Part shown: positions 1-14,529 of the stretch, piece by piece
How the letters are laid out: each line of letters opens with the position of its first letter
Numbering within the stretch: position 1 is the stretch's first letter
Virus record (IMG/VR): IMGVR_UViG_2651869780_000020
Location: 1 to 17,046 of that record
DNA: 17,046 nucleotides
Reading direction: 5' to 3' (one strand)
Origin: a virus
Taxonomy: Duplodnaviria > Heunggongvirae > Uroviricota > Caudoviricetes
Translations under genes and position numbers: made by a program
The notes under the pieces: model-generated
The model's input: the letters and a program-made list of their open reading frames with translations, nothing else
What the model was told of the DNA's origin: nothing
The model's database searches: none

Positions 1-948
1 GGGCTATTGCAGTACACCGGAACGGCTATTCAGCAAATTACAGGTGCGTCGCAGCTTGAGAACATGCCGAGCAACGTCGCTACCGATACCGTTGATAGCA
101 TCTTTAACCGGATGGACACGCAGTCCTATATCTACATGGACAACATGGCTAAATCCATGCGCCGTGCTGGCGTCGTGTGGCTTTCTATGGCTCGTGAAGT
201 CTATGGCAGCGATACGCCAATGCGCATCGTTAATGAGGATGGCAGCGATGACGTGGCGCTGATGAATGGTGAAGTGGTTGACCGTCAGACAGGGAAGGTT
301 ATCGCGCTTAACGACCTTTCGCAGGGTAACTATGAAGTGACTGTCGATGTCGGTCAGTCGTTCGCTACTCGCCGTGATGCAACGGTTAAGTCGTTGCTTT
401 CCATGCTGTCACTTATCCCGCCAGGAACGCCGAAGCATGACCTTGTATCGTCGATGATTCTCGACAATATGGACGGCGAAGGGATGGGCGACCTTAAAGA
501 ATACAACCGCAATCAGTTGCTTCTGTCTGGCGTTATTAAGCCGAGAACACCAGAAGAACAGCAAATGGTTGAGCAGGCGAAACAACAACAGGCCAGTCAG
601 CCAGATCCGGCTATGGTTGCTGCGCAAGGTCAGCTTCTTGCTGGTCAGGCTGAATTGCAGAAAGCGCAGAACGAACAGGCAGCCATTCAGGTTAAAGCAT
701 TCCAGGCACAGACTGATGCTCAGGTTGCAGCGGCAAACGTTGTGAAAATCCTCGCATCTGCCGATAGCCAGCAGAAATCTGATATCCGCGAGGCTCTGAA
801 ACTGCTCGGACAGTTCCAGCAACAGCAAGGAGACAATGCCCGTGCTGATGCAGAGCTTGTCCTGAAAAGTCAGGCACAGGGTCATGCGCAGCGCATGGAC
901 ATCAGCAGCATCCTGCAAAAATCAACTCAGCAACAACCACAGCAGTAA
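1..948 (+). CDS. Portal protein, C-terminal part (5' end lies upstream of the window)
   Basis: The reading frame is open from base 1; the TTG at 7 in the ORF track is not a real start. Sits immediately upstream of scaffold and coat. Long Gln/Ala-rich helical C-terminus (..QQQASQ..AELQKAQNEQAAIQ..QQQPQQ) fits the extended C-terminal helix of P22-type portals. Stop TAA at 946-948. Confidence 0.8.
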   Translation, partial: GLLQYTGTAIQQITGASQLENMPSNVATDTVDSIFNRMDTQSYIYMDNMAKSMRRAGVVWLSMAREVYGSDTPMRIVNEDGSDDVALMNGEVVDRQTGKVIALNDLSQGNYEVTVDVGQSFATRRDATVKSLLSMLSLIPPGTPKHDLVSSMILDNMDGEGMGDLKEYNRNQLLLSGVIKPRTPEEQQMVEQAKQQQASQPDPAMVAAQGQLLAGQAELQKAQNEQAAIQVKAFQAQTDAQVAAANVVKILASADSQQKSDIREALKLLGQFQQQQGDNARADAELVLKSQAQGHAQRMDISSILQKSTQQQPQQ

Positions 949-1038
949 TTAACCCATAACGTGCAATGGCTGTCTTTATGAGGCCTGGCACCCTATTGCC
1001 TTCCGATGGGCTGAACATCGAGTAAACAGGGGTAACAA

Positions 1039-1932
1039 ATGGACCAGATGGCAGAAAACACACCAGAAGTTGAAATCGAAACCGATGCGTCAGAGCAGAT
1101 TCCTGATGATGTCGAACTGGCTGAAGAAGTCGAAACAGAAGATGGCAGTGAGTCCTCCGGCAATGATGCAGAGGAAGCTACTGAAACTGATGGCGACGAA
1201 TCAGAACAGGAATTCTACTTTGGTGACGAAAAGCTGGATTCGCCAACCAGCGAAGATGGCGCAGAGCATGGACTGGTAAAACACCTGCGCAAGACGATTA
1301 AAGAGAAAGACCGCGAGCTGAAAGAGCTGATGCGTCAGTCTCAGAAACCCGTCGAGCAGCAGCCGGTAATAACTCAACCACCGCGAATGCCAAAACTGGA
1401 TGATGAGGACATCGGTTTCGATGAAGAAATCTACCAGCAACGCATGGCTAAGTGGGCAGAGGATAACGGCAAGTACCAGCAACAGGAGATGGCTCGCAAG
1501 CAGAAGGAGCAGGAGCTTCAGGCTGCCTATCAAGAGCGATTATCCAAATATCAGCAACGTGTTAAGGCTCTCAAAGTTCCTGGCTATCAGGAAGCAGAAC
1601 AGGCCGTACTCGAGGAAATCCCCATCGAGACACAAAACGCGATCCTGTTTGAGTCAGAGAAGCCGGAAATCGTTGTTCTGGCGCTCGGTCGCAACGCTGA
1701 ACTGCGCAAGCAACTGGCAGAAGCTACCAACCCCGTAGCAATTGGTCGTCTGCTGGAACGTATCGAATCGAAGGCCAGAGTCATGCCAAAAGCAAAAACC
1801 ACGGCAGCCACAACCCCGACAGTTAAGGGGAGCAACGGCGCAGTAATCAACAACCTCGGCAAATTGAAAGCCAAGGCGCTGGAAACTGGTGACTGGACGC
1901 CGTATTTCGCCGCTAAAAAGGCAAAAAAATAA
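1039..1932 (+). CDS. Scaffolding protein
   Basis: 297 aa, located between portal and coat. Very acidic N-terminus, central charged helical region, basic C-terminal tail (..LGKLKAKALETGDWTPYFAAKKAKK) resembling the coat-binding helix-turn-helix end of P22 gp8. RBS cagggg at 1027-1032. Confidence 0.85.
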   Translation: MDQMAENTPEVEIETDASEQIPDDVELAEEVETEDGSESSGNDAEEATETDGDESEQEFYFGDEKLDSPTSEDGAEHGLVKHLRKTIKEKDRELKELMRQSQKPVEQQPVITQPPRMPKLDDEDIGFDEEIYQQRMAKWAEDNGKYQQQEMARKQKEQELQAAYQERLSKYQQRVKALKVPGYQEAEQAVLEEIPIETQNAILFESEKPEIVVLALGRNAELRKQLAEATNPVAIGRLLERIESKARVMPKAKTTAATTPTVKGSNGAVINNLGKLKAKALETGDWTPYFAAKKAKK

Positions 1933-1950
1933 CCTATCGGAGCATTAAAC

Positions 1951-3204
1951 ATGGCTAACCAATTAGCAAAAGACCTTGAAATCATGTTCGAAAACTACGT
2001 TGAAGGCTTTGAGGCCGCCTGCGTAGTTTCCCGTAACGCTAAAAAATTCCGTCCCGGTGATACAGCAATGCAGCGAGCAGGTGATGTTCTGTATCGTCCG
2101 CAGCATTACCACATGAACATTGAGGAAGGCCTAGACCTCAGCGGCAAAACGCCAACAGCACTGGTTCAGCGCCTTGTTCCTTCTGTGTTCAAGGAGCCGA
2201 AAAACATTCTGTACACTCTGGATGCGCGTGAAATGCGTGACCCGGAACATAAAACTGAAGCTGGTCGCGCCGCAGGTATGCGCCTTGCTGCACAGATTGA
2301 CTCTGACCTGATTTCCATGGTCACGCAGCGTGCTACTAACGTGATCACAATGGCTGACTCAACCACTGGTTCACAGGGTCGTGATTTGTGGAACTGTGCG
2401 GCAGGTATTGATGCCACCATGACGGCGATTGGTGTACCACAGGGTATCAACCGCCGCTCTTTCTGGAACCCCTTCAACTACAAAGACCTTGCTGGCGAGC
2501 TTGGTCACCGTGCCTATGCTCAGGGCGCAACCCTGACAGCATACGAAAAAGCGCAGATCCCTCCGGTTGCGTCCTTCGATAGCTACAAGACCGATATTTC
2601 TGGTCGTGTTCCGAAGGGTACAGCAACTTCCATTACGCTGGCAGCAGCACCTGCGCACAAGGTTGAAGCGAAAGATGCTAACGAAATGCCAGTGGATAAC
2701 CGACAGGGGACCATTACGGTATCTGCTGAAGGTTTGCAGGTTGGCGATGCGTTTACCATCGCAGGGGTGAATTCCGTACACCAGATCACCAAAGATACCA
2801 CCGGGCAGCCGCAGGTATTCCGCGTTCTGGCAGTTAGCGGAACGACAGTAACTATCTCCCCGAAAATTCTGCCGCCTGACAACGCGGATGTCGCCAGCCG
2901 TCCATATGCAAACGTTGATGCTAATGCGGCAAGTAGCGCAGCAATCACCATTCTCAACAAAAATGCCGCACCGGCTAACCTGTTCTGGGCTGATGGTTCT
3001 GTTGAACTGATGTACGGCAAACTGGCGTTCCCGACTGGTCAGGGTCCACAGGTAATGACAGCAACCACCGAGCAGGGCGCTACACTGATCATGTCTTACG
3101 CCTTCGACCACATCAAAGGCGTAACCACTGCGCGTTTCACCACTCTGTACGGTTGCTCTGTACTGGTTCCTGAATATACGGGCATCGTTATTGCCGGGCA
3201 GTAA
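1951..3204 (+). CDS. Major capsid (coat) protein, P22 gp5 family
   Basis: 417 aa. Recognisable similarity to P22 coat as recalled (e.g. RPYANVDANAASSAAITILN and FWADGSVELMYGKLAFP versus P22 RAYANVN...AVNILN and FWADDAIRIV). Position directly after scaffold; followed by a hairpin terminator. Confidence 0.9.
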   Translation: MANQLAKDLEIMFENYVEGFEAACVVSRNAKKFRPGDTAMQRAGDVLYRPQHYHMNIEEGLDLSGKTPTALVQRLVPSVFKEPKNILYTLDAREMRDPEHKTEAGRAAGMRLAAQIDSDLISMVTQRATNVITMADSTTGSQGRDLWNCAAGIDATMTAIGVPQGINRRSFWNPFNYKDLAGELGHRAYAQGATLTAYEKAQIPPVASFDSYKTDISGRVPKGTATSITLAAAPAHKVEAKDANEMPVDNRQGTITVSAEGLQVGDAFTIAGVNSVHQITKDTTGQPQVFRVLAVSGTTVTISPKILPPDNADVASRPYANVDANAASSAAITILNKNAAPANLFWADGSVELMYGKLAFPTGQGPQVMTATTEQGATLIMSYAFDHIKGVTTARFTTLYGCSVLVPEYTGIVIAGQ

Positions 3205-3210
3205 TTTAGG

Positions 3211-3234
3211 TGGGGCTTCGGCCCCATTTTTATT
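3211..3234 (+). terminator. Intrinsic terminator/attenuator immediately after the coat gene
   Basis: Stem tggggc (3211-3216), loop ttcg, stem gcccca (3221-3226), then T-rich run ttttatt, starting 7 nt after the coat stop codon. Likely partial, since downstream late genes must still be expressed. Confidence 0.6.
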
Positions 3235-3245
3235 GGGAGAAGACA

Positions 3246-3434
3246 ATGGCACGAACAATGCTCTATAAGCCGGGCAACATGATCACCTGTGGTCAGTTTG
3301 CTGTCGATTACATCATTGTTGATGACGAAGAAGTTAAATCTCACCTGAAAAAAGGCTGGGTAAAAACTCCTGAAGAAACCGCAACGAAGCAAAAAGTGGC
3401 TAAGGCGGAAGAAGATGGCGAAAACGAAGGGTGA
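3246..3434 (+). CDS. Small hypothetical protein (62 aa) between coat and gp4
   Basis: ATG at 3246 preceded by GGGAGA (3235-3240) at 5-nt spacing. The GTG at 3210 in the ORF track lies inside the terminator stem and is rejected. The 3' end overlaps the gp4 start by 20 nt. Acidic C-terminus. No family recognised. Confidence 0.45.
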   Translation: MARTMLYKPGNMITCGQFAVDYIIVDDEEVKSHLKKGWVKTPEETATKQKVAKAEEDGENEG

Positions 3435-3876
3435 TCTCGTTCTTAAGGCTTTACGAAAAGCCGGGCTGTATTCCAATGCCACGTTGACAGATGCTGACCC
3501 TCAGGCAATTGAAGATGCCATTAATGACCTCGAAGACATGATGGCAGCATGGCAGGCAAAAGGTATCGAGCTTGGGTATCAGTTTGCTGATACAGAAAAC
3601 GGCATCATGCCGTTACCTGACGATGATTCAGGTATCCCTGCATGGGCAAATGATGGCGTCGCTTTGAAACTCGCTGTGCAAGTGTGCATGGATAACGTCA
3701 TTCAGCCGTCAGACGCTCTCCTTACCGCTGCTGACAGTGCATATCAGACAATCTGTATCGCTTTAACCAAAATACCACCACTTGAGCGGAGAAATGACAT
3801 GCCTCGCGGTAGTGGTAACAAAAGCGCGTTTACGTGGAATCGGTTTTACATCGAGAAAGATGATCCGAGTACGTGA
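3415..3876 (+). CDS. Head-to-tail adaptor / tail accessory factor, P22 gp4-like
   Basis: 153 aa. N-terminus [33 protein letters not shown] closely resembles P22 gp4 as recalled ([33 protein letters not shown]). Position after coat. Confidence 0.85.
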   Translation: [153 protein letters not shown]

Positions 3877-3885
3877 GGTGAATAA

Positions 3886-5304
3886 ATGCCGATTCAGCAA
3901 CTTCCGCTTATGAAAGGTGTCGGCAAAGACTTTCGAAACGCCGACTATATCGACTATCTGCCAGTGAATATGTTGGCAACCCCCAAAGAAATCCTGAACA
4001 GCAGCGGATATCTTCGCTCATTCCCGGGCATTGCCAAACGCTCTGATGTGAACGGTGTATCGCGCGGCGTCGAGTACAACATGGCGCAGAATGCTGTTTA
4101 TCGTGTCTGTGGCGGCAAGCTCTACAAAGGCGAAAGCGAAGTCGGTGACGTCGCCGGAAGTGGTCGCGTATCAATGGCCCATGATCGGACATCACAGGCG
4201 GTAGGTGTTAACGGGAAACTGGTCGAGTATCGCTATGATGGCACGGTTAAAACAGTCTCAAACTGGCCAACAGACAGCGGATTCACGCAGTATGAATTAG
4301 GTTCGGTCCGTGACATTACGCGCTTACGTGGGCGTTATGCGTGGTCAAAAGACGGAACTGATTCATGGTTTATCACTGACCTTGAAGACGAATCGCATCC
4401 TGACCGCTACAGCGCACAATATCGCGCAGAATCGCAGCCGGACGGAATCATCGGTATCGGCACATGGCGAGACTTCATAGTCTGCTTTGGTTCATCAACG
4501 ATTGAATATTTCTCCCTGACTGGTGCAACCACAGTTGGTGCCGCTTTGTATGTCGCACAACCATCACTGATGGTGCAAAAAGGCATTGCCGGAACTTACT
4601 GCAAAACGCCGTTTGCTGACTCGTATGCGTTCATCAGCAATCCGGCAACAGGTGCGCCGTCTGTATACATCATCGGCTCCGGTCAGGTATCACCAATCGC
4701 CAGCGCGAGCATTGAGAAAATCCTCCGCTCCTACACTGCTGATGAACTGGCTGATGGCGTGATGGAATCGCTGAGATTTGATGCGCATGAACTGCTGATT
4801 ATCCATCTTACGCGCCACGTCCTCGTGTACGACGCATCTTCAAGCGCCAATGGTCCGCAATGGTGTGTACTGAAAACAGGCCTGTATGACGATGTGTACC
4901 GCGCTATCGACTTCATTTACGAAGGCAATCAGATAACGTGCGGCGATAAGCTGGAATCCATGACAGGGAAATTGCAATTCGACATCAGCAGCCAGTACGA
5001 CAAGCAACAGGAACATCTGCTGTTTACTCCTCTGTTCAAAGCGGATAACGCCAGAGTGTTCGACCTTGAAGTTGAATCGTCAACTGGAGTTGCGCAGTAC
5101 GCTGACCGCCTTTTTCTCTCTGCAACCACTGACGGCATCAATTACGGGCGTGAGCAGATGATTGAGCAGAATGAACCGTTCGTTTACGACAAACGCGTTT
5201 TGTGGAAGCGTGTCGGGCGAATAAGGAAAAATGTCGGCTTCAAATTGCGCGTTATCACTAAGTCACCTGTCACTCTCTCAGGCTGCCAGATAAGGATTGA
5301 GTAA
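3886..5304 (+). CDS. Tail hub / head completion protein, P22 gp10-like
   Basis: 472 aa, the same length as P22 gp10 as recalled, in the syntenic position between gp4 and the tail needle. RBS gaggtg at 3876-3881. Confidence 0.8.
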
Positions 5305-6005
5305 TGGCGGATTCGAATCTCAATGTGCCGGTAATCATTCAGGCTACACGGCTCGACACATCAGTCCTTCCACGCAATATCTTCTCGCAGTCGTATCTGC
5401 TTTACGTTATCGCACAGGGCACTGATGTTGGTAACGTGGCTAACAAGGCCAACGAGGCCGGACAGGGCGCTTACGATGCTCAGGTGAAAAACGATGAACA
5501 GGATGTCGAACTGGCTGACCACGATGCAAGAATCACCGCAAACACAAAAGCGATAAATCTCCTTGAGGTCAGGTTAACAACCGCCGAAGGGAAGATAGTC
5601 GTACTGCGTAGCGATGTTGATTACTTGCTGGATGAGGTTATCGATATTCAGGCGCATCTGGTCACTGTTGACCAAAGACTGGATGGCGTAGAAAGCGATG
5701 TATCTGACATTAAGAGTGATTACGTATCGAAAACCGTAACCGAATCGCAGTCTCTTGCGTCACCGCTGGATGTAAAAACATCATATTCAGTTGATGGAAT
5801 TCAGGTTGTTGGAGCAAGAAATACCGGATGGACTGCAGCCACAGGTACACCTCTTCTTGGCTCATTCAACGCTAACCAGTCATACACGGTCGGCACTACG
5901 TACACACAATCCGAAGTCGCGGCTCTCGCTACAGGTTTGCAGCAGGCGCGGCAGCGTATTCTGGCGCTTGAAACAGCACTTAGATTACATGGGCTGATTG
6001 ACTGA
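5304..6005 (+). CDS. Tail needle protein, P22 gp26-like
   Basis: 233 aa. N-terminus [43 protein letters not shown] and C-terminus ..ALRLHGLID are highly similar to P22 gp26 as recalled; coiled-coil heptads in between. Start overlaps the gp10 stop (TAATG). Confidence 0.9.
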
Positions 6006-6460
6006 TGATTACATTCAAACCAACGCGAAACATCGACCTGATCGAAGCAGTCGGAAATCACCCTGACATTATTGCCGGGAGCAACAACGGTGATGGATAC
6101 GACTACAAACCTGAATGCCGTTACTTTGAGGTGAACGTGCACGGGCAGTTCGGCGGCATTGTTTACTATCAGGAGATTCAGCCGCTGACATTCGATTGCC
6201 ACGCCATGTACCTGCCAGAGATTCGCGGCTTCAGCAAGGAAATCGGTCTGGCGTTCTGGCGATACATTCTGACTAACACCACCGTTCAGTGCGTCACATC
6301 GTTCGCTGCACGTAAATTCCGCCACGGTCAGATGTACTGCGCAATGATTGGCCTTAAGCGTGTAGGAACCATCAAGAAATACTTCAAAGGCGTGGATGAC
6401 GTGACGTTTTACAGCGCAACACGCGAAGAACTAATCGACTTCCTGAATCACGGGAGATAG
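6005..6460 (+). CDS. gp14-like protein (head assembly / ejection-associated)
   Basis: 151 aa in the P22 gene-14 position between the tail needle and gp7. Start overlaps the gp26 stop (TGATG). Assignment is by synteny and size only. Confidence 0.65.
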   Translation: MITFKPTRNIDLIEAVGNHPDIIAGSNNGDGYDYKPECRYFEVNVHGQFGGIVYYQEIQPLTFDCHAMYLPEIRGFSKEIGLAFWRYILTNTTVQCVTSFAARKFRHGQMYCAMIGLKRVGTIKKYFKGVDDVTFYSATREELIDFLNHGR

Positions 6461-6462
6461 CC

Positions 6463-7158
6463 ATGTTATATGCATTTAAGCTGGGCAGAAAACTGCGCGG
6501 CGAGGAACCTTATTGCCCTGAAAAAGGCGGGAAAGGTGGCAGTTCTGATAAAAGCGCAAAGTATGCAGCAGAAGCTCAGAAGTATGCCGCAGACCTGCAA
6601 AATCAGCAGTGGCAGACGATCATGAAAAACCTTGCTCCGTTCACGCCACTCGCTCAGCAGTACGTATCACAATTGCAGAATCTTTCCTCTCTTCAGGGAC
6701 AAGGTCAGGCACTTAACCAGTATTACAACTCTCAGCAGTACAAAGATCTTGCTGGTCAGGCTCGCTATCAGAGTCTGGCTGCAGCGGAAGCAACAGGTGG
6801 ATTGGGTTCCACTGCAACCGGTAATCAGTTAGCAACAATCGCACCAACGCTTGGTCAGCAGTGGCTGTCTGGTCAGATGAACAACTACCAGAATCTGGCA
6901 AATATTGGTCTTGGCGCACTGCAAGGTCAGGCAAACGCCGGGCAGACATATGCCAACAACATGAGTCAGATTTCGCAGCAAAGTGCGGCTCTTGCCGCTG
7001 CTAATGCCAATAAACCATCAGGTCTTCAGACAGCAATTAGCGGCGGAGCTTCAGGGGCTATGACTGGCGCTGCTCTTGGCTCTATTGTTCCCGGACTTGG
7101 CACTGGATTAGGTGCGGCAATTGGCGGCGGACTTGGCCTGCTTGGATCGTTGTTTTAA
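6463..7158 (+). CDS. Ejection (injection) protein, P22 gp7-like
   Basis: 231 aa versus about 229 aa for P22 gp7. Gln-rich low-complexity middle and a Gly/Ala-rich hydrophobic C-terminus (GAALGSIVPGLGTGLGAAIGGGLGLLGSLF) consistent with a membrane-inserting ejection protein. RBS gggaga at 6452-6457. Confidence 0.8.
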   Translation: MLYAFKLGRKLRGEEPYCPEKGGKGGSSDKSAKYAAEAQKYAADLQNQQWQTIMKNLAPFTPLAQQYVSQLQNLSSLQGQGQALNQYYNSQQYKDLAGQARYQSLAAAEATGGLGSTATGNQLATIAPTLGQQWLSGQMNNYQNLANIGLGALQGQANAGQTYANNMSQISQQSAALAAANANKPSGLQTAISGGASGAMTGAALGSIVPGLGTGLGAAIGGGLGLLGSLF

Positions 7159-7167
7159 GGGGTAATC

Positions 7168-8574
7168 ATGGCTACTTGGCAAGGAACAAATGGCGGATTG
7201 TTGGCTGGTATCGGTGGTGTCAACTCAAACGCTCCGAGCGTAAATGACATCGGCAATACGCTTCAGCTTATCAGACAGAACAATGATATTGAGCGTTCAG
7301 GCGCTAACAATGTTGGGCTGACTGCTTTGCAAGGTCTTTCAGGTATTGCGGGGGTGTTTCAGCAGGAAAAGCAGGCTCAGCGGCAGAAAGAATTTCAGCA
7401 GGCATACGCTAATGCTTATGCGTCTGGTGATCGCGGTGCTTTGCGTCAGTTGGCTACTCAATATCCAGACCAGATTGAATCCGTTCGTAAAGGCATGGGA
7501 TTCATTGACGAAGACCAGCGCAATTCTATCGGCACCTTAGCGGCTGGCGCACGCCTTGCGGCCTCGTCTCCAGAAGCAATGCAATCATGGCTGCAAAACA
7601 ACGCCAAGGAACTGGCGCGCGTCGGTGTTGACCCTAATAACGTTGCTCAGATGTATCAGCAGAATCCTTCAGGATTTGGTGAGTTTGTTGATCACCTTGG
7701 GATGGCTGCGCTTGGTCCGATTGATTACTTCAATGTTCAGGACAAGATGGCTGGTCGTGAGATTGACCGAGGCAGACTGGCAGAGACAATCCGCAGCAAT
7801 CAGGCTGGAGAAGCACTTCAGGCGAGAGGGCAAAACCTTTCCTATCAGTCAGCAATGACTGGGCACAATATCGCAGCACAACGCTTGGCTCTGGATCAGC
7901 AAGAGTTCGGGTTTAAGATGCAGCAAGCGCAGGAAAAGGCTCAGCAGTTGATTAGCGAAGCACCTAAGCTGTCAGTAAACATGGAAAAAGGCATCGAGAC
8001 GGCTGTAAACAATGCTACAGCATCATCAAACTCAGCCAATTCTATGAGTGCGCTTGCTCAACAGTTCAGAGCAGAAAAACCAACGACAGGTTTGTTCGGT
8101 AACGCACAGAACATGTTCGCAAAACTTACCGGAAGCGATACAACATTGCGTGATTTGCGCATCCGCCAAAATGCCCTTGTTAACAGTCAGGTTCTTAAAT
8201 TCCTACCTCCAGGCCCCGCAACGGATAAAGACGTTGAGATCGTTCGGCAGGGTGCACCAACTGACATGGATAACCCTGAGACGGTCGCAAGATGGCTTGA
8301 TGCGATGGCAAACCTTGAGCGACGAAACGCGCAGTTTAATGAGTTTAAAGCCGAGTGGATGAGCGCGAATGGCAATCCAGGACAATCGCGTAATGGCGGT
8401 CAGATATTGGGGTTGGATGTTAAAAAAGGTGAATCATTGGGGAGTGCCGTTAAGCGGTATATGTCAATGAATACTGACGCAGCGCCAGCACAAGATTCGA
8501 CACCTTCAGGAGAACCACGGAATCAGGTTGGATCATATACCTCAAAATCAGGCATTCAATTTACGGTGGAATGA
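7168..8574 (+). CDS. Ejection (injection) protein, P22 gp20-like
   Basis: 468 aa versus about 471 aa for P22 gp20; syntenic; RBS aagggg. Stop overlaps the next start (ATGA at 8571-8574). Confidence 0.8.
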
Positions 8575-10697
8575 TGAAAGTAACTGCAAACGGTAAGACA
8601 TTTACCTTCCCTGATGGTACGAGCACGGAAGATATTGGCACCGCCATTGATGAGTATTTTGCTGGTCAGGCTGTTCAGCAACAAACAGTTAATCAGGCCA
8701 ATAATGAACCAGCACGTGAAGAACCATCATTGATGCAACAAGCTGGCGATTGGCTCACAGGTGGTCAAAGTGCAGGGCAAATTGCAGAGCAGGCTGGTCG
8801 TGGTCTGGTAAACATACCATTTGACGTATTGCAGGGTGGCGCAAGTCTGATTAATGCAATCAGCCAGGGGCTTGGTGGCCCCAAGGTTTTGGATGATGTT
8901 TATCGCCCTGTCGATCGACCGACAGACCGTTGGGCGCAAGCCGGTGAAACATTTGGTGGGTATCTCCTGCCAATTGGCACAGCGGCAAAAGCTGCTGGAG
9001 CGACAGCAAAGCTCGCAGGAGACATCGGTTCCGCAGGAAACATGATTGCAGGTTCTCTTGCTGATGCTGCAAATCAGAAGGGTGATTTTGCACAAAATGC
9101 TGCCATTAACGGTGGTATCAATATTGGTGCTCAAGGCGTTCTTTCAGGTGTCGGGCGCGTTATTGCGCCAAGGGTTTCACAGGCTCTTGGTGGTGCAGCA
9201 CTGAATTCTGCTAATGATGTTTCCAGGATGGCAAAGTCAGGTGCTGGGCGTCAGTCAATTGCCAGTCAGGCCGCTAATGTGTCCGAAGATGTAGCAAAAG
9301 CGGCTGAGTCTGCTGGAATTGATATAAACGCATTAACACCAGGAATGCGATCTGGAAGTCGTGGAATTGCACAAGCCGAAGGCGCATTGGCATCAACACC
9401 AGGAATTGTTCAGGACGCCCATCAGGCAGCATTTAACGAAATATCATCAAAGTTAAGTCGAAACCTTGATGAATTTGGGGCCGCATCTGGAACGGCATCA
9501 GAAAAAAGTGCGGCTATAAAACAAAGGATTCTTCAAAATCTTGAACAGATGAAGGATGCCGAGCGCGCGGCATGGGATGACGTGCGGTCAACAATGCCAA
9601 ATCAAAAAGCAAGAATGCTAAATGGTAATGCCGTTATTCAGGCAGAGCGATCTGCTGGCATACCGCTTACTCCTGAAATGAAACAGTTTGTTCAGGCAAA
9701 CAATCAAGGTGGAGTAACATTTGATGGCATGAAAGCATGGAGAGCGAAATTTGCTGATGCGGAGCAAAAATATAAGCGTAGCGGAGAGGCAAATGCGGCA
9801 AGGAGAGCAGGGGAAATACGCCGGGCAATTACTGATGATATGCGCACAATGGCGGAAAACGGCGGATTTCTTGATGACTGGCAGAAAGCTAATGATCTGT
9901 CTAAAGCGAGGTTATCAGCACAAGAGAGTGCAGAGTCTGTTTTCGGGCGTGATTTGGCAACAGATGCACTGATTACGAATGGAGTAAAATCCCTTCAATC
10001 ATCGTCAGCTAAAGGTCTTAATGGCCCTGCTGGGTTCCATTCTATGATCCGCGCGCTGCCAGAATCAGAGCGTGTTCCTGCTATATCATCAATGTTGCAA
10101 GACGCTATCTCGCATGGTGTACGTGGTGGCAAAGCTGATGCAGCAGGAATTAACCATATCGCAGGGATACTTACCCCACAAAATGTAAAAGCCATTAGCA
10201 GATATTCCTCAGAACTCGGAAGAATTGCTGATGCATATGGCACTCTTGCAAGAGCAGCAGTGAAACCTCAGCAGTATATTGAAAGAACAGGGAGAACTGC
10301 CAATGTACTACGCGATCTGGATGCTGGTTTATCCAACGTCACATCAACAGTGTTAAATGCAATTGCCAACTCAACATCAGGTGCCATTGTTGGTGGCGCT
10401 GGAGGGGGTATTGCAGGCGCTGCCGCGGGTGCTTTAGTTGGCGCTGGGTTAAAAGGCGCTGTATCTAAAATTGCCACCACACGTAGTGGCCGATATGCGA
10501 TAGAGAAAGCTGTTCAGGAAGCCACCAAAGCAGTAAGAGCAGGCGGAAGTAAAGAAGCATTAGCGGCTGCGGAACGCAGATTTATGGCAAATAAGGCCGC
10601 CGTAAAAGCAATACGCGAGGCACTAGGAAACGAAGAGTTCCAGCGTTTAGCAAGAGCTGGAATTGTGGCATCGCTAAGCGGAATGGCACAGGAGTAA
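8571..10697 (+). CDS. Ejection (injection) protein, P22 gp16-like
   Basis: 708 aa, last and largest of the three ejection proteins. Gly/Ala-rich segments. Translationally coupled to gp20. Longer than P22 gp16 (about 609 aa as recalled). Confidence 0.8.
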
Positions 10698-11102
10698 TTA
10701 GTCATCCATGGATGGATTGAGCTTATCTCGTGTTGATGTGGCAATTTTCCCAACATTTTTCAACCAAGATTTTAAGAAGGATATGTCGTCCTTAATATCA
10801 TGAATATCCTCATTCTTTATACGATCAACCTTATCCTCTAAGCTCTCTATAGAACGCTCAATGCTAGACAGAGAGATTTTTAAGTCCCCTTGCTCACGTT
10901 CCAGTGAGGATTTGAGAGCACAATATTCGTTTTCTAGAATTCCTATTTTTTTTGTTAGAGAGTGCATTCGATACTCATACACCAAACCAGAAACGACTAA
11001 TGCAGCCAACAGAAACCATTCAAGCACACCAACCTCCTTAGTTTTGAGCAGGATACCAGATGATAATGTGTAGTTGGAGTAGCGCGGTTGTAATGCAAGC
11101 AT
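10698..11102 (-). CDS. Hypothetical membrane-anchored coiled-coil protein (candidate superinfection-exclusion function, P22 sieA position)
   Basis: 134 aa. One predicted transmembrane helix (LEWFLLAALVVSGLVYEY) followed by a heptad-rich charged segment (LENEYCALKSSLEREQGDLKISLSSIERSIESLEDKVDRIKNEDIHDIKDDISFLKSW). AT-rich. Convergent with gp16 with abutting stop codons (TAATTA at 10695-10700). No obvious SD sequence. No family recognised. Confidence 0.55.
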   Translation of the reverse strand: MLALQPRYSNYTLSSGILLKTKEVGVLEWFLLAALVVSGLVYEYRMHSLTKKIGILENEYCALKSSLEREQGDLKISLSSIERSIESLEDKVDRIKNEDIHDIKDDISFLKSWLKNVGKIATSTRDKLNPSMDD

Positions 11103-11182
11103 TTTGTTTTAGTTTTATGCTTGCTTGTATGTGTGTACAGTGTATATAATGCAAGCATACATCACAACAAAGGTGCTTGCAT
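11093..11182. repeat. Four copies of a 9-10 bp near-palindromic motif in alternating orientation: ATGCAAGCAT (11093-11102), ATGCTTGC (11117-11124), ATGCAAGCAT (11149-11158), TGCTTGCAT (11174-11182)
   Basis: Read directly from the sequence. The copies form two imperfect inverted-repeat units of about 32 bp, spaced about 56 bp apart. Copy 1 overlaps the start codon of the - strand membrane protein; copy 2 overlaps the -35; copy 3 abuts the -10; copy 4 lies between the RBS and the ATG of the 322-aa gene. Confidence 0.6.
11121..11150 (+). promoter_or_regulatory. Sigma70-like promoter for the 322-aa accessory gene
   Basis: TTGCTT (11121-11126), 18-bp spacer, TATAAT (11145-11150); RBS aggtg at 11171-11175; ATG at 11184. 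Confidence 0.55.
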
Positions 11183-11183
11183 T

Positions 11184-12152
11184 ATGACTGAAAAGAAAAG
11201 TGGCGAAGGGAAAGCTAAGGGCGGGATCGCTCGCGCAAAGTCGCTGACTAAAGAGCAGCGTTCTGAAATAGCAAAGAAAGCAGCTGCTGCAAGATGGAAA
11301 AGTAAGATTCTCAGGGCAACTCATCGTGGTAACTTTTTAGATGATTTTGGCATTGATGCTGAATGTTATGTACTGGATGACGAGTCGAAAACTGTCGTTG
11401 TTACGAAAACTGGATTATCTCAGTTGCTAGGGATTGGTGAACATGCCAGGGATTTAGATCAACTGCTTGGCGCTCAGTATATGAGCAAATACCGAGATCT
11501 AGAATTGCAGCGAAAAATGGAAAATCCCTATAAATTTCAACTTACTTCGAAGTCTAAAACCGTTCATCAAGCGTTAGGTTATGACATTACAGCAATTGTT
11601 GATATTGGTAGGGCACTAATAGAAGCCAAAGATAATGACGATCTACCACAATCACGGTTAAAGGCAGCCGCCGCAGCACAGAGACTTATTAATGCCTCCG
11701 CTAAGGCGGGAATTAAGGGGGTTGCGTATGCGCTTGCTGGTTATCGTCCAGAAGTTCAGGCTGTCATTGACGAGTTCAAAGCGTTTGTTCGTGAAGAGGC
11801 TCGTCAATATGAAAAGGAATTTCCAGATGAGCTATACGAGGAGTGGTATCGACTGTACGGCCTGAATAGGCCAGAGAAAGGACGGCCTATTCGTTTTGGG
11901 CAGCTAACCAACATGCAGATATACACCCCGCTAGCAAAGAGTAAAGGTAAAATCCTTGAACAGATTCGAGCCAGCCGAGACGAGAACGGAAAACAATCTG
12001 ATAAGTTGCATCTGTTCCTTTCTGAAATTGGTGTCAAGGCTTTGCGTCAGCATATCGGTAAGCTTCTTGGTGTCGCAGCGATGAGTGAGACAAGAGAAGA
12101 ATACGAAAAAGGAATAGAAAAGGTTTTCGGAAGAATGAAACCAGAAATCTAA
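11184..12152 (+). CDS. Hypothetical 322-aa accessory (moron) protein with a basic N-terminal helix-turn-helix-like motif; function unknown
   Basis: Long ORF with its own promoter and a strong terminator. The TTG start at 11121 in the ORF track is rejected in favour of ATG 11184 (MTEKKSGEGKAKGGIARAKSLTKEQRSEIAKKAAAARW..). The remainder is a charged, helical-looking domain. Not part of the conserved P22 structural set. Confidence 0.75.
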   Translation: MTEKKSGEGKAKGGIARAKSLTKEQRSEIAKKAAAARWKSKILRATHRGNFLDDFGIDAECYVLDDESKTVVVTKTGLSQLLGIGEHARDLDQLLGAQYMSKYRDLELQRKMENPYKFQLTSKSKTVHQALGYDITAIVDIGRALIEAKDNDDLPQSRLKAAAAAQRLINASAKAGIKGVAYALAGYRPEVQAVIDEFKAFVREEARQYEKEFPDELYEEWYRLYGLNRPEKGRPIRFGQLTNMQIYTPLAKSKGKILEQIRASRDENGKQSDKLHLFLSEIGVKALRQHIGKLLGVAAMSETREEYEKGIEKVFGRMKPEI

Positions 12153-12157
12153 TTATG

Positions 12158-12183
12158 AAACCCACCGTCAGGTGGGTTTTTTG
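12158..12183. terminator. Intrinsic terminator, probably bidirectional
   Basis: aaacccacc (12158-12166), loop gtca, ggtgggttt (12171-12179), T-run to 12183; A-rich on the upstream side. Lies between the convergent 322-aa gene (+) and the 67-aa gene (-). Confidence 0.8.
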
Positions 12184-12198
12184 TTGGAGATAAAATGG

Positions 12199-12402
12199 TT
12201 AACCAAATCGATCCTTAAAGCGCCTATCGCTGTTGCGTCTCTCCATTTTACTGTTGCAGTACGGACAAAGATGCTGTTTCTTTCCATCGATAGTCCATGT
12301 GAAGTACTTTTTCTTAAATCCAGCACCACAGATATCGCAACTTCTTGGTTTAAACATACTGGCTATGAAGATAAGAACAACAAATCCTATGATCCATTCC
12401 AT
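12199..12402 (-). CDS. Small membrane-anchored zinc-ribbon protein (67 aa)
   Basis: N-terminal hydrophobic helix (EWIIGFVVLIFIASMF) followed by CDIC..(19 aa)..CPYC, i.e. four Cys in a C-x2-C...C-x2-C arrangement, and a basic tail. Ends just before the bidirectional terminator. Confidence 0.5.
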   Translation of the reverse strand: MEWIIGFVVLIFIASMFKPRSCDICGAGFKKKYFTWTIDGKKQHLCPYCNSKMERRNSDRRFKDRFG

Positions 12403-12543
12403 ATCATGTACCTGTTTTAACTTTATTTTTTGATTTTTAGGGATTAATCAGAAACTTTATCTTGCGATTAAGCAAAGCTACTAGCTAACAAAAGAGTGCG
12501 TATACAATCAATCGTTTCACATCAACCTCAACAAGGAGAAATC

Positions 12544-12729
12544 ATGACCATAGAAGAACGCCTGAACAACATTGAGTTGAACCAAACCCTGCTTGACCAG
12601 CGACTTTCAGATCTTGAGCTTAAAGATCTTGATGCGCAAATATCAGAAGCAGAAGCCAAGCTCTCCAGCTTAAACCACCGCAAGAAGCAAATCCGCAACA
12701 GAATTACTCAGGGACGCGGAAGCTGTTGA
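12544..12729 (+). CDS. Small coiled-coil protein (61 aa)
   Basis: ATG 12544 preceded by a strong SD AAGGAG (12533-12538) at 5-nt spacing; the GTG at 12496 in the ORF track is rejected. Sequence MTIEERLNNIELNQTLLDQRLSDLELKDLDAQISEAEAKL.. is heptad-like. The 3' end overlaps the convergent 69-aa ORF by 26 nt. Confidence 0.5.
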   Translation: MTIEERLNNIELNQTLLDQRLSDLELKDLDAQISEAEAKLSSLNHRKKQIRNRITQGRGSC

Positions 12730-12913
12730 GGTGGGATGCTAGGTCTCTATCGTTAAAATCAAGGCTGCTAATCATTTCATTGTAAATGGCGTTTTTATCT
12801 TCCATTGGCAGTCTTGAGTAAACCAGACACAGAGCATATTTCAGGGAGTTTAGCTCTTTCTCTAGCTCTTCCTTGCTTGACGTTGTTGACTTAATAAACT
12901 GTTTTTTATTCAT
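12704..12913 (-). CDS. Hypothetical 69-aa protein, translationally coupled downstream of mnt
   Basis: On the - strand its ATG overlaps the mnt TGA stop (ATGA at 12910-12913). No recognisable family. Confidence 0.45.
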   Translation of the reverse strand: MNKKQFIKSTTSSKEELEKELNSLKYALCLVYSRLPMEDKNAIYNEMISSLDFNDRDLASHLNSFRVPE

Positions 12914-13161
12914 TTTGCATCCTTACCATACATGGTCTTTAGCGTCTCAACATCGTGTTCAAGATCTATCAATCGTGATGCTATAGTTGCAAGGTCTAGT
13001 GCTTGAATGTGTTTATTTTTTTCGGTCCACGCTTCAAGTGCCGCGACCATCTCAGCATTTAATGAACGAGAATTAGCCTCAGCCAGTTCAATAAGACGTT
13101 CCTTTATCTCTACAGGAAGCCTCAGATTCACTTGAGGGTTTTTGTACTTACGATCAGACAT
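12910..13161 (-). CDS. mnt: Mnt-like ribbon-helix-helix repressor (Arc/MetJ superfamily)
   Basis: 83 aa, the same length as P22 Mnt as recalled. N-terminus ..NLRLPVEIKERLIELAEANSRSLNAEMVAALEAW matches the RHH beta-strand/helix pattern of P22 Mnt (..FRMPMEVREKLKFRAEANGRSMNSELLQIV..). Divergent from arc. Confidence 0.8.
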   Translation of the reverse strand: MSDRKYKNPQVNLRLPVEIKERLIELAEANSRSLNAEMVAALEAWTEKNKHIQALDLATIASRLIDLEHDVETLKTMYGKDAK

Positions 13162-13266
13162 CGGCGCATCCTGAATAATTTTTTACCACAGGATATGTAG
13201 GTATCTATTGACTATCAATGCGTACCTAAATGCTATGTATGCGTACCACGTACAACGGAGGATGCA
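13162..13266. promoter_or_regulatory. Divergent promoter/operator region between mnt and arc (Pmnt/Pant-like)
   Basis: 105-bp intergenic region. Palindrome ATTGA-cta-TCAAT (13207-13219) contains back-to-back -35-like hexamers (TTGACT on +, TTGATA on -). Direct repeat ATGCGTACC at 13218-13226 and 13239-13247, 21 bp apart. Inverted ATCCTG/CAGGAT (13168-13173 / 13189-13194). AGGATGC precedes both start codons. Exact -10 elements are ambiguous. Confidence 0.55.
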
Positions 13267-13407
13267 ATGAAGGTAAAAACACTGCGTATGCCAGAGAAGC
13301 TAGAAAAAATTCTTGAAGAAAAAGCAAAGGAAGAGTGTCGCTCATTCAGCGCAGAAGTAATTAAACGGGTGCTGGACAGCCTGAGGAGAGAGGGGATAAC
13401 GGTGTGA
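13267..13407 (+). CDS. arc: Arc-like ribbon-helix-helix repressor (46 aa; below the ORF-track size cutoff)
   Basis: Own translation: MKVKTLRMPEKLEKILEEKAKEECRSFSAEVIKRVLDSLRREGITV. The segment RSFSAEVIKRVLDSLRREG resembles P22 Arc RSVNSEIYQRVMESFKKEG as recalled. SD GGAGG at 13256-13260. Sits between mnt and ant as in P22 immI. Confidence 0.75.
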   Translation: MKVKTLRMPEKLEKILEEKAKEECRSFSAEVIKRVLDSLRREGITV

Positions 13408-13423
13408 TTCGCTTGGATGCGGC

Positions 13424-13472
13424 AAAGAAATCAAAACAGTGAAGCCCCAACTGCGGGAACAGTCAGGGCTTC
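13424..13472 (-). terminator. Intrinsic terminator oriented for leftward (- strand) transcription in the arc-ant spacer
   Basis: Stem GAAGCCC (13441-13447) / GGGCTTC (13466-13472) with an inner ACTG/CAGT helix. On the - strand it is followed by ACUGUUUUGAUUUCUUU (complement of 13424-13440). No U-run follows it on the + strand. Confidence 0.55.
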
Positions 13473-13505
13473 GGTATCGTAAAACCACGCATAGGAATTA
13501 ACGAC
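13424..13505 (-). ncRNA. Predicted sar-like small antisense RNA, complementary to the ant ribosome-binding site
   Basis: Inferred from a - strand promoter inside the ant 5' end (see 13512-13540) plus the - strand terminator at 13424-13472. The predicted transcript of about 80 nt is antisense to the ant SD (agga 13493-13496) and start region, analogous to the P22 Sar RNA. Ends are approximate. Confidence 0.4.
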
Positions 13506-14429
13506 ATGAAAAGTATAGCAACAGCAGTATCTACTATCAATGTACCATTCCACGGCGCAGAGCTTTATGTTGTCAATCACAACGGCGAACCGTATACCCC
13601 AATGAAACCTATCGTTGAGGGAATGGGGCTAGACTGGAAATCTCAACATAAGAAGATTTCTCAACGCTTCTCGAAGGGTATGGTGGAAATCACCATACCT
13701 TCTGCCGGTGGGGTGCAAGCCATGATTTGTATGGCTTTACGAAAATTGGCAGCTTGGTTGAACAGCATCAGTCCTAACAAAGTCCGCCCTGAAATCCGCG
13801 ACAAGGAAATCCAGTATCAGGAAGAGTGTGACGATGTGCTCTACGAGTACTGGACTAAAGGCCATGTAGTTAACCCACGCAAAGCTAAAAAGGCGTTGCC
13901 GGGTAAAATCACCACTGAACAGCAGGAAGCCATTAAACAACTCGTCATGAGTCGCGGTCAGTCTCTGCCAAAAGAAAAACAGGCTAAGGCGATGATCACC
14001 ATGTGGTCGTCACTGAAATCTCATTTTGGGTGTTCATACAAAGAAATCAGCGATGAGCAGTTTACCGAAGCTCTGTCACTTGCAGCTCGCGTTCCGCTTG
14101 AAGGCGAGTTAATCGGCAAACAAGAGAAGAAAGCAAACGAGCTTTCTGCAAAAGAAGCAAACAGCCTTGTATGGTTATGGGATTATGCCAACCGCTCACA
14201 GGCATTATTCCGCGAACTGTATCCGGCGCTAAAACAAATTCAATCGAACTATTCCGGCAGATGTCATGACTGCGGTTATGAGTTCTCCCGTATTATCGAT
14301 ATGGCGAGAGATGTTTTAATCAACCATACACGAGATGTTGATATTAATGAGCCAGACGGACCAACGAATCTTTCCGCATGGATGAGACTTAAGAATAAAG
14401 AATTACCTCCTTCAGTACATAACTACTGA
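13506..14429 (+). CDS. ant: Antirepressor (Ant-like)
   Basis: 307 aa versus about 300 aa for P22 Ant. Located directly downstream of arc. N-terminal pattern (..VPFHGAELYVV..GEPYTPMKPIVEGMGLDWKSQHKKI..) is reminiscent of phage antirepressor N-terminal domains. Followed by a terminator. Confidence 0.7.
   Translation: MKSIATAVSTINVPFHGAELYVVNHNGEPYTPMKPIVEGMGLDWKSQHKKISQRFSKGMVEITIPSAGGVQAMICMALRKLAAWLNSISPNKVRPEIRDKEIQYQEECDDVLYEYWTKGHVVNPRKAKKALPGKITTEQQEAIKQLVMSRGQSLPKEKQAKAMITMWSSLKSHFGCSYKEISDEQFTEALSLAARVPLEGELIGKQEKKANELSAKEANSLVWLWDYANRSQALFRELYPALKQIQSNYSGRCHDCGYEFSRIIDMARDVLINHTRDVDINEPDGPTNLSAWMRLKNKELPPSVHNY
13512..13540 (-). promoter_or_regulatory. Psar-like leftward promoter inside the first codons of ant
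   Basis: On the - strand: TTGATA (complement of 13535-13540), 17-bp spacer, TATACT (complement of 13512-13517); the predicted start is near the ant ATG. Confidence 0.5.
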
Positions 14430-14446
14430 CAGATAACCAACGCAAC

Positions 14447-14472
14447 GACCCAGCTTCGGCTGGGTTTTTTTA
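14447..14472 (+). terminator. Intrinsic terminator between ant and the tailspike
   Basis: acccagc (14448-14454), loop ttcg, gctgggt (14459-14465), then a run of 7 T. Confidence 0.8.
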
Positions 14473-14529
14473 TGCCCAAAATTCACCGTAGCCACGCTGC
14501 GGCGATTCCTTGCATCTGGAGCAAATTAA

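Follow-up and report, generated by a model that had tools for sequence, protein, structure and literature searches.

The immI region of phage P22 is the textbook system for DNA recognition by ribbon-helix-helix (RHH) proteins, yet it is a single example. There, arc and ant are under repression by Mnt, while Arc represses mnt and has a moderating effect on ant; the sar RNA pairs with ant mRNA (PMC11016777). The closest phage to the one studied here, CUS-3 (CP000711), carries the same element as our locus and was reported to be without arc, so that its ant gene would be controlled differently (Villafane et al., 2008; PMC2629481). Here we describe a natural second case, present in a 17,046-nucleotide stretch of DNA (IMG/VR virus record IMGVR_UViG_2651869780_000020, positions 1 to 17,046; this whole stretch is referred to as the window). 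The interval 13162-13266 of the window, 105 bp in length, is exactly the spacer between the start codon of an mnt-like gene (13161, minus strand) and that of an arc-like gene (13267, plus strand). It serves as control region for a CUS-3-type immI (antirepressor) module, which belongs to a P22-like (Lederbergvirus) E. coli prophage. The interval carries phased boxes within two predicted divergent promoters and, judging from the sequence, we consider these boxes likely to be operators for the flanking Arc-family RHH repressors. By analogy, the regulatory logic of P22 would be expected here, wired differently.

The module resembles that of P22 in its gene order: mnt points away from the arc-ant operon, sar lies between the two genes of that operon, Psar falls within ant, and the tailspike gene follows just downstream. 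The proteins are also homologous, the Mnt-like protein being 32% identical to P22 Mnt over 79 amino acids (the BLASTP alignment runs through the C-terminus), the Arc-like protein 33% identical to P22 Arc over 39 amino acids, and the ant product 56% identical to P22 Ant. A preliminary description of the window, made from the letters alone, had placed an operator-rich divergent promoter region between mnt and arc at this position. The Pfam matches, the sar RNA and a promoter scan agree with that assignment, and show the two RHH repressor genes to be part of an immI module.

Promoters, phased boxes and their conservation

We used a promoter scan that, as a control, returned exactly the annotated Pant and Pmnt of P22. 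Pmnt was called in both the window and the genome of E. coli NRG857C. Pant was called in NRG857C, where it has the consensus allele TTGACT-17-TACTAT, and was missed by the scan in the window because position 2 of its -10 hexamer is a G. Both would be sigma-70 promoters, Pant reading rightwards into the arc-like gene and ant, and Pmnt leftwards into the mnt-like gene. Relatives keep the TAnnnT positions in the -10 hexamers of both promoters; those of Pmnt (13195, 13194 and 13190) are nearly invariant in 13 lineages. In relatives, the Pant hexamer reads TACTAT or TAATAT, with 85% pairwise identity across lineages. We are confident, on these sequence grounds, that the two promoters are as mapped. 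Their -35 hexamers overlap by one bp, at 13213, so that a single polymerase could probably be accommodated at a time. A conserved T-tract, AATAATTTTTTACC (13174-13187), covers roughly -69 to -56 relative to the Pant start, where the mnt mRNA is also predicted to begin; it is a candidate UP element for Pant.

Three boxes related to the palindrome TAGGTACCTA are found in this region with their centres exactly 21 bp apart: O1 in the Pmnt spacer, O2 in the Pant spacer, and a third within O3 at the Pant +1 (TGCGTACCAC, 13240-13249). Relative to the predicted Pant start, the centre of O1 is at about -40, that of O2 at about -19 and that of the box in O3 at about +2; relative to the predicted Pmnt start, the corresponding values are about -20, -41 and -62. 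O1 is TAGGTACCTA itself, a perfect palindrome, in loci L012 and L094, and is TGCGTACCTA, the sequence of O2 in the window, in the Photorhabdus loci. The box within O3 holds the second copy of the 9-mer ATGCGTACC found in O2, and belongs to a third 21-bp unit (13236-13256). The three 21-bp units are mutually identical at 7-14 of 21 positions in every intact lineage, and the phasing of 21 + 21 bp is kept without insertion or deletion in all 12 intact lineages. Symmetry is also kept in variants centred on CATATG in two lineages, TACATATGTA at O1 (L070) and TGCATATGTA at O3 (L158). In the whole 17-kb window, the box motifs occur only in this region.

O3 as a whole is a 19-bp palindrome whose arms pair at 6 of 9 positions in the window (which has G at 13250), at 7 of 9 in the consensus and at 8 of 9 in ACCGCATACA variants. 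It was also picked up as a hairpin-like site by a terminator scan on NRG857C; a role as an RNA structure was rejected, since the predicted Pant start cuts the palindrome. A second ATACAA follows exactly 10 bp downstream of the right arm in loci L011, L012, L048, L052, L074, L091, L094 and L172 (about 13259-13266 in the window), a copy whose sequence suggests that ATACA by itself constitutes a half-site.

Conservation was assessed in relatives that had been collected by protein search with the Mnt-like sequence, and thus independently of any DNA motif, in species genomes and in IMG/VR. The species genomes gave loci in Arsenophonus, Phlomobacter, Xenorhabdus, Photorhabdus and Chimaeribacter, and IMG/VR gave more loci. 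Grouping at 85% Mnt identity resulted in 13 lineages, E. coli included, 12 of which are intact; all identities that follow are pairwise values across these 12. The 60-bp spacer core (13196-13255) is 83% identical, compared with 67% for the first 150 nucleotides of mnt and 45% for mnt third codon positions. Within the core, identity reaches 89% in the O1 core (13197-13203), 96% in the block of two -35 hexamers (13207-13219), 86% in the O2 core (13220-13226), and 90% and 80% in the two parts of O3 (13237-13247 and 13250-13255). In the mnt leader (13162-13189), and again past about 13256, conservation is at background level. Promoter spacers and the positions from +1 to +12 normally need no fixed sequence, yet they are conserved here, which argues for selection on blocks that are not promoter elements. 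The region had earlier been called denser than two promoters need, and the 86-90% identity of both promoter spacers and of the Pant +1 region, against 45% at mnt third positions, bears this out.

Of 5426 complete E. coli genomes, 184 carry the module, in every case on the chromosome; among them are the NRG857C, UTI89 and O104:H4 outbreak lineages. One further locus, L168 (IMG/VR 3300031419_000529), holds a decaying module in which the arc-like reading frame is truncated after 13 codons and the Mnt strand has RLS for RLP; O3 is partly deleted there, and O1, both -35 hexamers and O2 are intact.

We next set the motifs of the preliminary description, all of which were found where it had placed them, against chance levels obtained from dinucleotide-preserving shuffles of the 105-bp spacer. 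The direct repeat ATGCGTACC (13218-13226 and 13239-13247, 21 bp from start to start) held up, a repeat of at least 9 bp having p = 0.013. The palindrome ATTGActaTCAAT (13207-13219) had been reported together with back-to-back -35 hexamers. These hexamers are indeed present, TTGACT on the plus strand (13208-13213) and TTGATA on the minus strand (13218→13213), but their overlap largely accounts for the palindrome, and a hairpin with 5-bp arms and a loop of at most 3 has p = 0.41 in the shuffles. Two further pairs are present at chance level only: ATCCTG (13168-13173) with CAGGAT (13189-13194), where a 6-nt inverted repeat within 30 nt has p = 0.53, and AGGATGC (13259-13265) with its reverse complement at 13166-13172, where a 7-nt inverted repeat at any distance has p = 0.30. 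Both pairs are missing from distant relatives, sit in or reach into unconserved parts, and are explained by the two Shine-Dalgarno sites and the -10 hexamer of Pmnt. An mRNA structure in mnt formed by ATCCTG and CAGGAT is impossible, as CAGGAT lies upstream of the predicted start.

Three features had been overlooked. The direct repeat is part of the three-unit array (three 7-mers phased 21 + 21 bp in the window, p = 0.005), the unit at the Pant +1 is the 19-bp palindrome described above, and a 31-bp palindrome, centred on the central element, spans 13198-13228 with 11 of 15 pairs (p = 0.013; 13 of 15 pairs in L012, by inspection). Within this single sequence, the direct repeat and the long palindrome depart modestly from chance, unlike the other two pairs; it is conservation in relatives, not the within-sequence statistics, that provides the strong evidence.

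An account of this region without any operators would take it as promoter elements and chance repeats, with the conservation arising from recent horizontal spread of a 'boundary sequence'. The annotation of the stretch in CUS-3 is indeed only 'bsq2; boundary sequence', two of the four motif pairs of the preliminary description are at chance, and the other within-sequence p values are only about 0.01. However, conservation is sharply bounded to 13190-13255 with diverged flanks, a pattern that transfer of a larger block would not give; promoter spacers and positions +1 to +12 are as conserved as the hexamers; and wherever the core occurs, from E. coli to Arsenophonus, it goes with one and the same Mnt strand. 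This account is therefore highly improbable. Conversely, the conserved blocks in the promoter spacers and at the Pant +1 are very probably repressor operators, and we lean, with less assurance, towards their forming a three-unit phased array.

Several observations weigh against the array of phased operators. The boxes are only partly palindromic, with conservation much higher in their left halves (T-R-S-G-T-A-Y) than in the right ones, so that 'direct repeats' is an equally good description. The O3 arms, like the central palindrome, share bases with the boxes, so that these bases admit several readings, and the -35/-35 palindrome is explained without any operator. In the P22 Arc operator, the dimer-to-dimer spacing is about 11 bp; 21 bp is about twice that, and bridging it requires a flexible Mnt linker. 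Data on binding, footprints or transcription starts for this allele or its relatives were not found in the searchable literature. A natural swap of either protein was likewise not found by protein, profile and DNA-pattern searches of genomes and viral contigs. We also tried a heptad register (8 x 7 bp) across 13199-13254, which fits 21 as 3 x 7, and rejected it, as the RTAY cores shift by 1-2 bp.

Linkage to the flanking repressors and possible assignments

Every locus that has the operator core also has an Mnt with the beta-strand PQVNLR(L/I)P, and the core or a close variant is present in every intact, non-orphan locus with such an Mnt. The core or a close variant was also found in all 80 loci collected with an Arc-like profile. 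Mnt type, Arc-like family and operator core are always linked, the only exceptions being orphan mnt copies without operators (L006, L119 and L130). The DNA-facing residues are Q-N-R in the Mnt-like protein, as in P22 Arc, and V/P-T/S-R in the Arc-like protein. The Mnt-like strand is almost identical to PQVNLRWP, the strand of an Arc mutant (F10V) that was crystallised in complex with operator DNA (PDB 1BAZ/1BDV), and hence a base-contacting role for the Mnt-like strand is well founded.

The Arc-like strand occurs in the versions KVKT[LIMV]R.P, PS[ST]VRFP and PVSVRMP, and the boxes show no matching change. A comparison of operator columns between the KVKT.R and the PS[ST]VR/PVSVR classes of Arc-like proteins yielded no differences other than the third base of the -10 and lineage-specific flanks. 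In its K-T-x-R form, we take the Arc-like strand to be similar to that of the omega repressor, and treat this as a lead only. Presumed recognition-code leads, also no more than leads, point in conflicting directions: Q-N-R of P22 Arc goes with TAGA vs TAGG here, and K-T-V-R of omega with ATCAC vs ATCAA here.

Overlapping operators for two RHH repressors had been suggested earlier. The conserved blocks beyond the promoters uphold the suggestion in part, but sequence cannot tell two operator kinds from one shared kind. As no natural swap was found, covariation cannot assign sites to proteins, and the sequence cannot match a repressor to a box. Nevertheless, we assign the boxes to the Mnt-like protein, because its strand is invariant and because orphan mnt copies are kept alone in other prophages; on this sequence evidence, we give the Mnt-like protein an even chance of being the one that binds the boxes.

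The orphans are found in MS196-1 and two IMG/VR contigs, where a window-type mnt stands second behind another mnt type, without window-type operators. Stacked mnt genes have coordinates 2207-2455 and 2479-2736 in L001 (CUS-3), and 1499-1750 and 1768-2007 in L006. The CUS-3 stack combines a window-type mnt with a second mnt of the P22 type, and no P22-type operator is present in that locus. Judged by their sequences, stacked and orphan mnt copies may be repressors that extend immunity against the antirepressors of other phages. The delta-mnt result reported for the LF82 prophage 'Gally' (PMC9928086) was not used, because the published primers for that deletion have no match in the NRG857C locus with this module.

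In the mechanism that we favour, the Mnt-like protein, with its invariant strand and predicted C-terminal helix, would occupy the boxes in the form of tetramers, each made up of two dimers. O3 and O2 would be the first sites to be filled; they share the identical ATGCGTACC on one face of the DNA, and an identical 9-mer two helical turns apart makes this pair of sites suited to a tetramer of two RHH dimers. With O3 and O2 occupied, Pant would be shut and ant silent in the lysogen, and Pmnt would be freed from competition with Pant. At high levels of Mnt, the weaker O1 would be filled as well and mnt turned down, giving negative autoregulation. The Arc-like protein, made from Pant, would feed back via the TGTAT/ATACA arms of O3, via the central ATTGA/TCAAT palindrome, or via the same boxes.

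We considered an arrangement of two separate operators as in P22, with the Arc-like protein on the 31-bp palindrome (13198-13228; ATTGActaTCAAT with TAGGTA/TACCTA arms), repressing both promoters, and the Mnt-like protein on O3 only. The positions would mirror those of P22, where Oarc lies inside Pant and Pmnt and Omnt at the Pant start, and where Arc represses mnt and ant and Mnt represses arc and ant (PMC11016777). The 31-bp palindrome has the above-chance pairing already described, both in the window and in L012, and the 8+3+8 geometry of O3 is as would be expected for two RHH dimers about 11 bp apart. In addition, TATCAAT matches the omega heptad, (T/A)ATCAC(T/A) (PMC4627068), at 6 of 7 positions, again a lead only. 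Such an arrangement does not, however, predict an identical 9-mer in O2 and O3 or a phased core in all three units, which are unexpected if the sites are read by different proteins. Moreover, the central GCGTACC of O3 shows as much conservation as the arms, the outer three left positions of the central element vary by lineage (TCT, CCT, CGT, TAT), and the inner palindrome results from the two overlapping -35 hexamers anyway. We consider a P22-style division of the sites unlikely.

Alternatively, both proteins could share the three boxes with different orders of affinity, much as at the OR region of phage lambda, so that the Mnt-like protein would set Pmnt on and Pant off, and the Arc-like protein would damp both. 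Three related units do lie over two back-to-back promoters, at the positions relative to the two starts given above. In lambda, CI at OR2 sits near -42 of PRM. Mnt at O2, about -41 of Pmnt, might also activate its own promoter. In the immI types L006 and L014, both RHH proteins share one DNA-facing strand and face three copies of one site. Here, in contrast, the strands of the two proteins differ, the Arc-like strand varies between lineages and the boxes do not follow, and the order of affinities is a matter of inference. An RHH counterpart of lambda OR, with three operators read by both repressors and setting two mutually exclusive promoters, is on this sequence evidence doubtful, and somewhat more so than the P22-style division. 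The reading that we prefer keeps the phased boxes as operators, with the Mnt-like protein as their proposed ligand.

The module, its neighbours and the allele in this prophage

The features of the control region and of the adjoining genes are collected in Table 1. The Mnt-like protein matches Pfam Arc (PF03869) with an E-value of 3.2e-10 and 40.1 bits (cutoff 20.4), and its residues 1-82 match phrog_795, the P22 mnt family, over the full length (6.4e-27). Its best match among solved structures is 1MNT (3e-5). P22 Mnt has a helical domain at its C-terminus through which two dimers form a tetramer. A single-sequence AlphaFold2 model shows helices at 17-48 and 55-77, with low confidence (pLDDT about 70 for 55-77), and the PDB alignments cover the strand PQVNLRLP and both helices (R-x-P strand end, RHH fold). 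The Arc-like protein matches Pfam Arc at 1.2e-7 and 31.9 bits (cutoff 20.4), and the Arc structures 1ARR and 1BAZ at about 4e-3, in alignments that take in the strand KVKTLRMP and both helices. In E. coli genomes, PGAP labels both proteins 'Arc family DNA-binding protein'. The position of the mnt Shine-Dalgarno site is not kept in distant relatives, and the arc-like site in relatives is AAGGAG followed by other bases.

Table 1. Coordinates of the control-region elements and of the genes of the immI module in the window
Feature	Coordinates	Strand	Description
O1	13198-13207		TAGGTATCTA in Pmnt spacer; conserved core GTAGGTA 13197-13203; unit u1 13194-13214
O2	13219-13228		TGCGTACCTA in Pant spacer, adjoins Pmnt -35; first ATGCGTACC copy; unit u2 13215-13235
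O3	13236-13254		19-bp palindrome TGTATGCG-tac-CGCATACA over Pant +1; right arm C(A/G)CATACA
Central element	13207-13219		ATTGActaTCAAT; back-to-back -35 hexamers; possible operator
Pmnt	13190-13218	-	-35 TTGATA (13218→13213), 17-bp spacer, -10 TATCCT (13195→13190); predicted start about 13183
Pant	13208-13236	+	-35 TTGACT (13208-13213), 17-bp spacer, -10 TGCTAT (13231-13236); predicted start about 13243
mnt Shine-Dalgarno	13167-13172	-	AGGATG; half of the AGGATGC pair and of the ATCCTG/CAGGAT pair
arc-like Shine-Dalgarno	13257-13262	+	GGAGGA; other half of the AGGATGC pair
mnt-like gene	12910-13161	-	83 aa; Arc-family RHH repressor with predicted C-terminal helix; beta-strand KNPQVNLRLP
arc-like gene	13267-13407	+	46 aa; minimal Arc-family RHH protein; beta-strand KVKTLRMP
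sar antisense RNA	13438-13504	-	Rfam RF00262, 76.6 bits (gathering score 43), E = 8.4e-15, full model
sar terminator hairpin	13472→13441	-	Terminator-like site
Psar promoter	13512-13540	-	TTGATA-17-TATACT, upstream TG; inside ant 5' end; scan score 10/12
ant, antirepressor	13506-14429	+	307 aa; Pfam P22_AR_N 2.4e-43, P22_AR_C 1.1e-27

The sar RNA lies opposite the ribosome-binding site of ant, and the position of Psar matches that annotated in P22. Upstream of the module there is an injectosome gene with an Inj_translocase match (1e-77), and downstream a tailspike gene with a P22 Head_binding domain (1.5e-64). The immI module is thus complete. It occupies the 'ant moron' slot, which, as described previously (PMC2629481), has the ejection-protein genes on one side and the tailspike gene on the other.

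A 69-amino-acid reading frame (12704-12913, minus strand), whose start overlaps the mnt stop (ATGA), matches phrog_16466 (5.5e-51; function not assigned in PHROG) and is probably co-transcribed with mnt. The same reading frame is found in Kapi1, behind another mnt type. Between the ejection genes and mnt, the slot also holds a gene at 11181-12152 (plus) for a protein with a P63C domain (6.8e-14), a 67-amino-acid reading frame at 12199-12402 (minus) with a weak zinc-ribbon match, and a 61-amino-acid coiled-coil reading frame at 12544-12729 (plus). In its gene content, the slot in the window is unlike those of CUS-3, Kapi1 and NRG857C.

Comparison of the window with NRG857C showed only 2 differences in 501 bp, both in functional elements. 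The change of A to G at 13232 removes the key A from position 2 of the Pant -10 hexamer (TACTAT to TGCTAT), and that of A to G at 13250 turns CATACA into CGTACA in the right arm of O3. Among the 145 complete E. coli genomes with the core, there is none that matches the window's 77 bp exactly or combines both changes. Strain 2014EL-1343-2 has the -10 change alone, as does another arc allele, and both changes are found in two IMG/VR loci, which are perhaps one and the same contig. Judged by its -10 sequence, Pant is likely to be weakened in this prophage, as a promoter-down allele.

Comparison with described control regions

The protein families (Arc/Mnt RHH proteins and the P22 antirepressor) and the sar RNA are already known, and the element is present in public genomes, partly annotated at the protein level. 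No description of the operator sequence, the back-to-back promoter geometry or the three-site phasing was found in the searchable literature. The regulatory region is real, and there is nothing surprising in kind about it.

The spacer of CUS-3 differs from that of the window at 6 positions, compared with 2 for NRG857C. CUS-3 has an extra Cys-rich reading frame of 67 amino acids (L001 2979-3182) between arc and sar, which is absent from the window (a 165-bp gap in the alignment, at window 13408-13437). It also has an arc-like reading frame of 46 amino acids (L001 2842-2982), which is unannotated and lies inside the 'bsq2; boundary sequence' feature. The conclusion drawn from a missing arc (PMC2629481) therefore no longer holds, and the published view is to be corrected: modules of the CUS-3 type do have arc.

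With respect to P22, the candidate operators here overlap the Pant spacer and the Pant start, as those of P22 do. The two P22 promoters are superimposed (4794-4822 on the plus strand and 4827-4799 on the minus strand), each with its -35 beside the -10 of the other and with predicted starts about 37 bp apart, whereas those in the window (13208-13236 and 13218-13190) stand back to back; their -35 hexamers have a single bp in common, and about 60 bp separate the predicted starts. In place of three related units at 21-bp phasing, P22 has one palindrome of 21 bp and another, unrelated to it, of 17 bp. The Mnt strand of P22 presents H-N-R, whereas the Mnt strand here presents Q-N-R. Searches with the P22 operators Oarc (ATGATAGAAGCACTCTACTAT, up to 5 mismatches) and Omnt (GGTCCACGGTGGACC, up to 3 mismatches) gave no match in the window or in the CUS-3 locus, and the search in L006 was also empty. 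A specificity distinct from that of P22, as surmised in the preliminary description, is thus borne out by the absence of Oarc- or Omnt-like sequence and by the different beta-strand residues.

Other immI types have repeats of their own. In L006 (2008-2115), CACrGTGTAG occurs at 2036, 2072 and 2093 (spacings of 36 and 21 bp), and both RHH proteins have the strand PLGIRIP. In L014 (reverse complement, about 1709-1760), GGACCACGGTGG sites lie 23 bp apart, and both RHH proteins have Q-K-R strands. The repeats of L006 and L014 lie around a TTGAC -35 hexamer; each type has three sites, of which the two on the Pant side are separated by 21-23 bp. In the Proteus loci L015 and L016, palindromes of the TGTGATATCACA type are present upstream of an mnt-like gene. 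A three-site plan may be common among immI types, with P22 as the exception.

The locus thus has the same parts as P22 with another operator sequence, another promoter geometry and a phased three-site layout. As the allele is widespread in E. coli and has relatives in insect and nematode symbionts, this second case bears on the specificity of RHH strands for DNA and on the bridging by tetramers of sites two helical turns apart. It also bears on the level of antirepressor expression, and hence on prophage induction and on cross-talk between prophages.

Among other RHH systems, the boxes resemble the heptads of the omega repressor (PMC4627068) and the metboxes of MetJ in being short, placed in promoters, in mixed direct and inverted orientation, with one RHH dimer presumably binding to each. 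The heptads and metboxes follow one another contiguously, every 7-8 bp, whereas the box centres here are 21 bp apart (equal to three heptads), and no contiguous register fits all of the conserved blocks. Lambda OR likewise has three tandem related operators that span two back-to-back promoters at fixed spacing, a geometry that is read here from sequence. One lambda operator lies at the start on the lytic side, one near -41 of the maintenance promoter, and one inside the maintenance promoter. Lambda OR differs in being bound by helix-turn-helix proteins rather than RHH proteins, in its spacing of 23-24 bp compared with 21 bp, and in serving the primary immunity region rather than control of an antirepressor; the sharing of sites by both repressors is only proposed here. 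If the lambda-like reading were true, it would point to a general design for antirepressor switches, with P22 as the odd one out.

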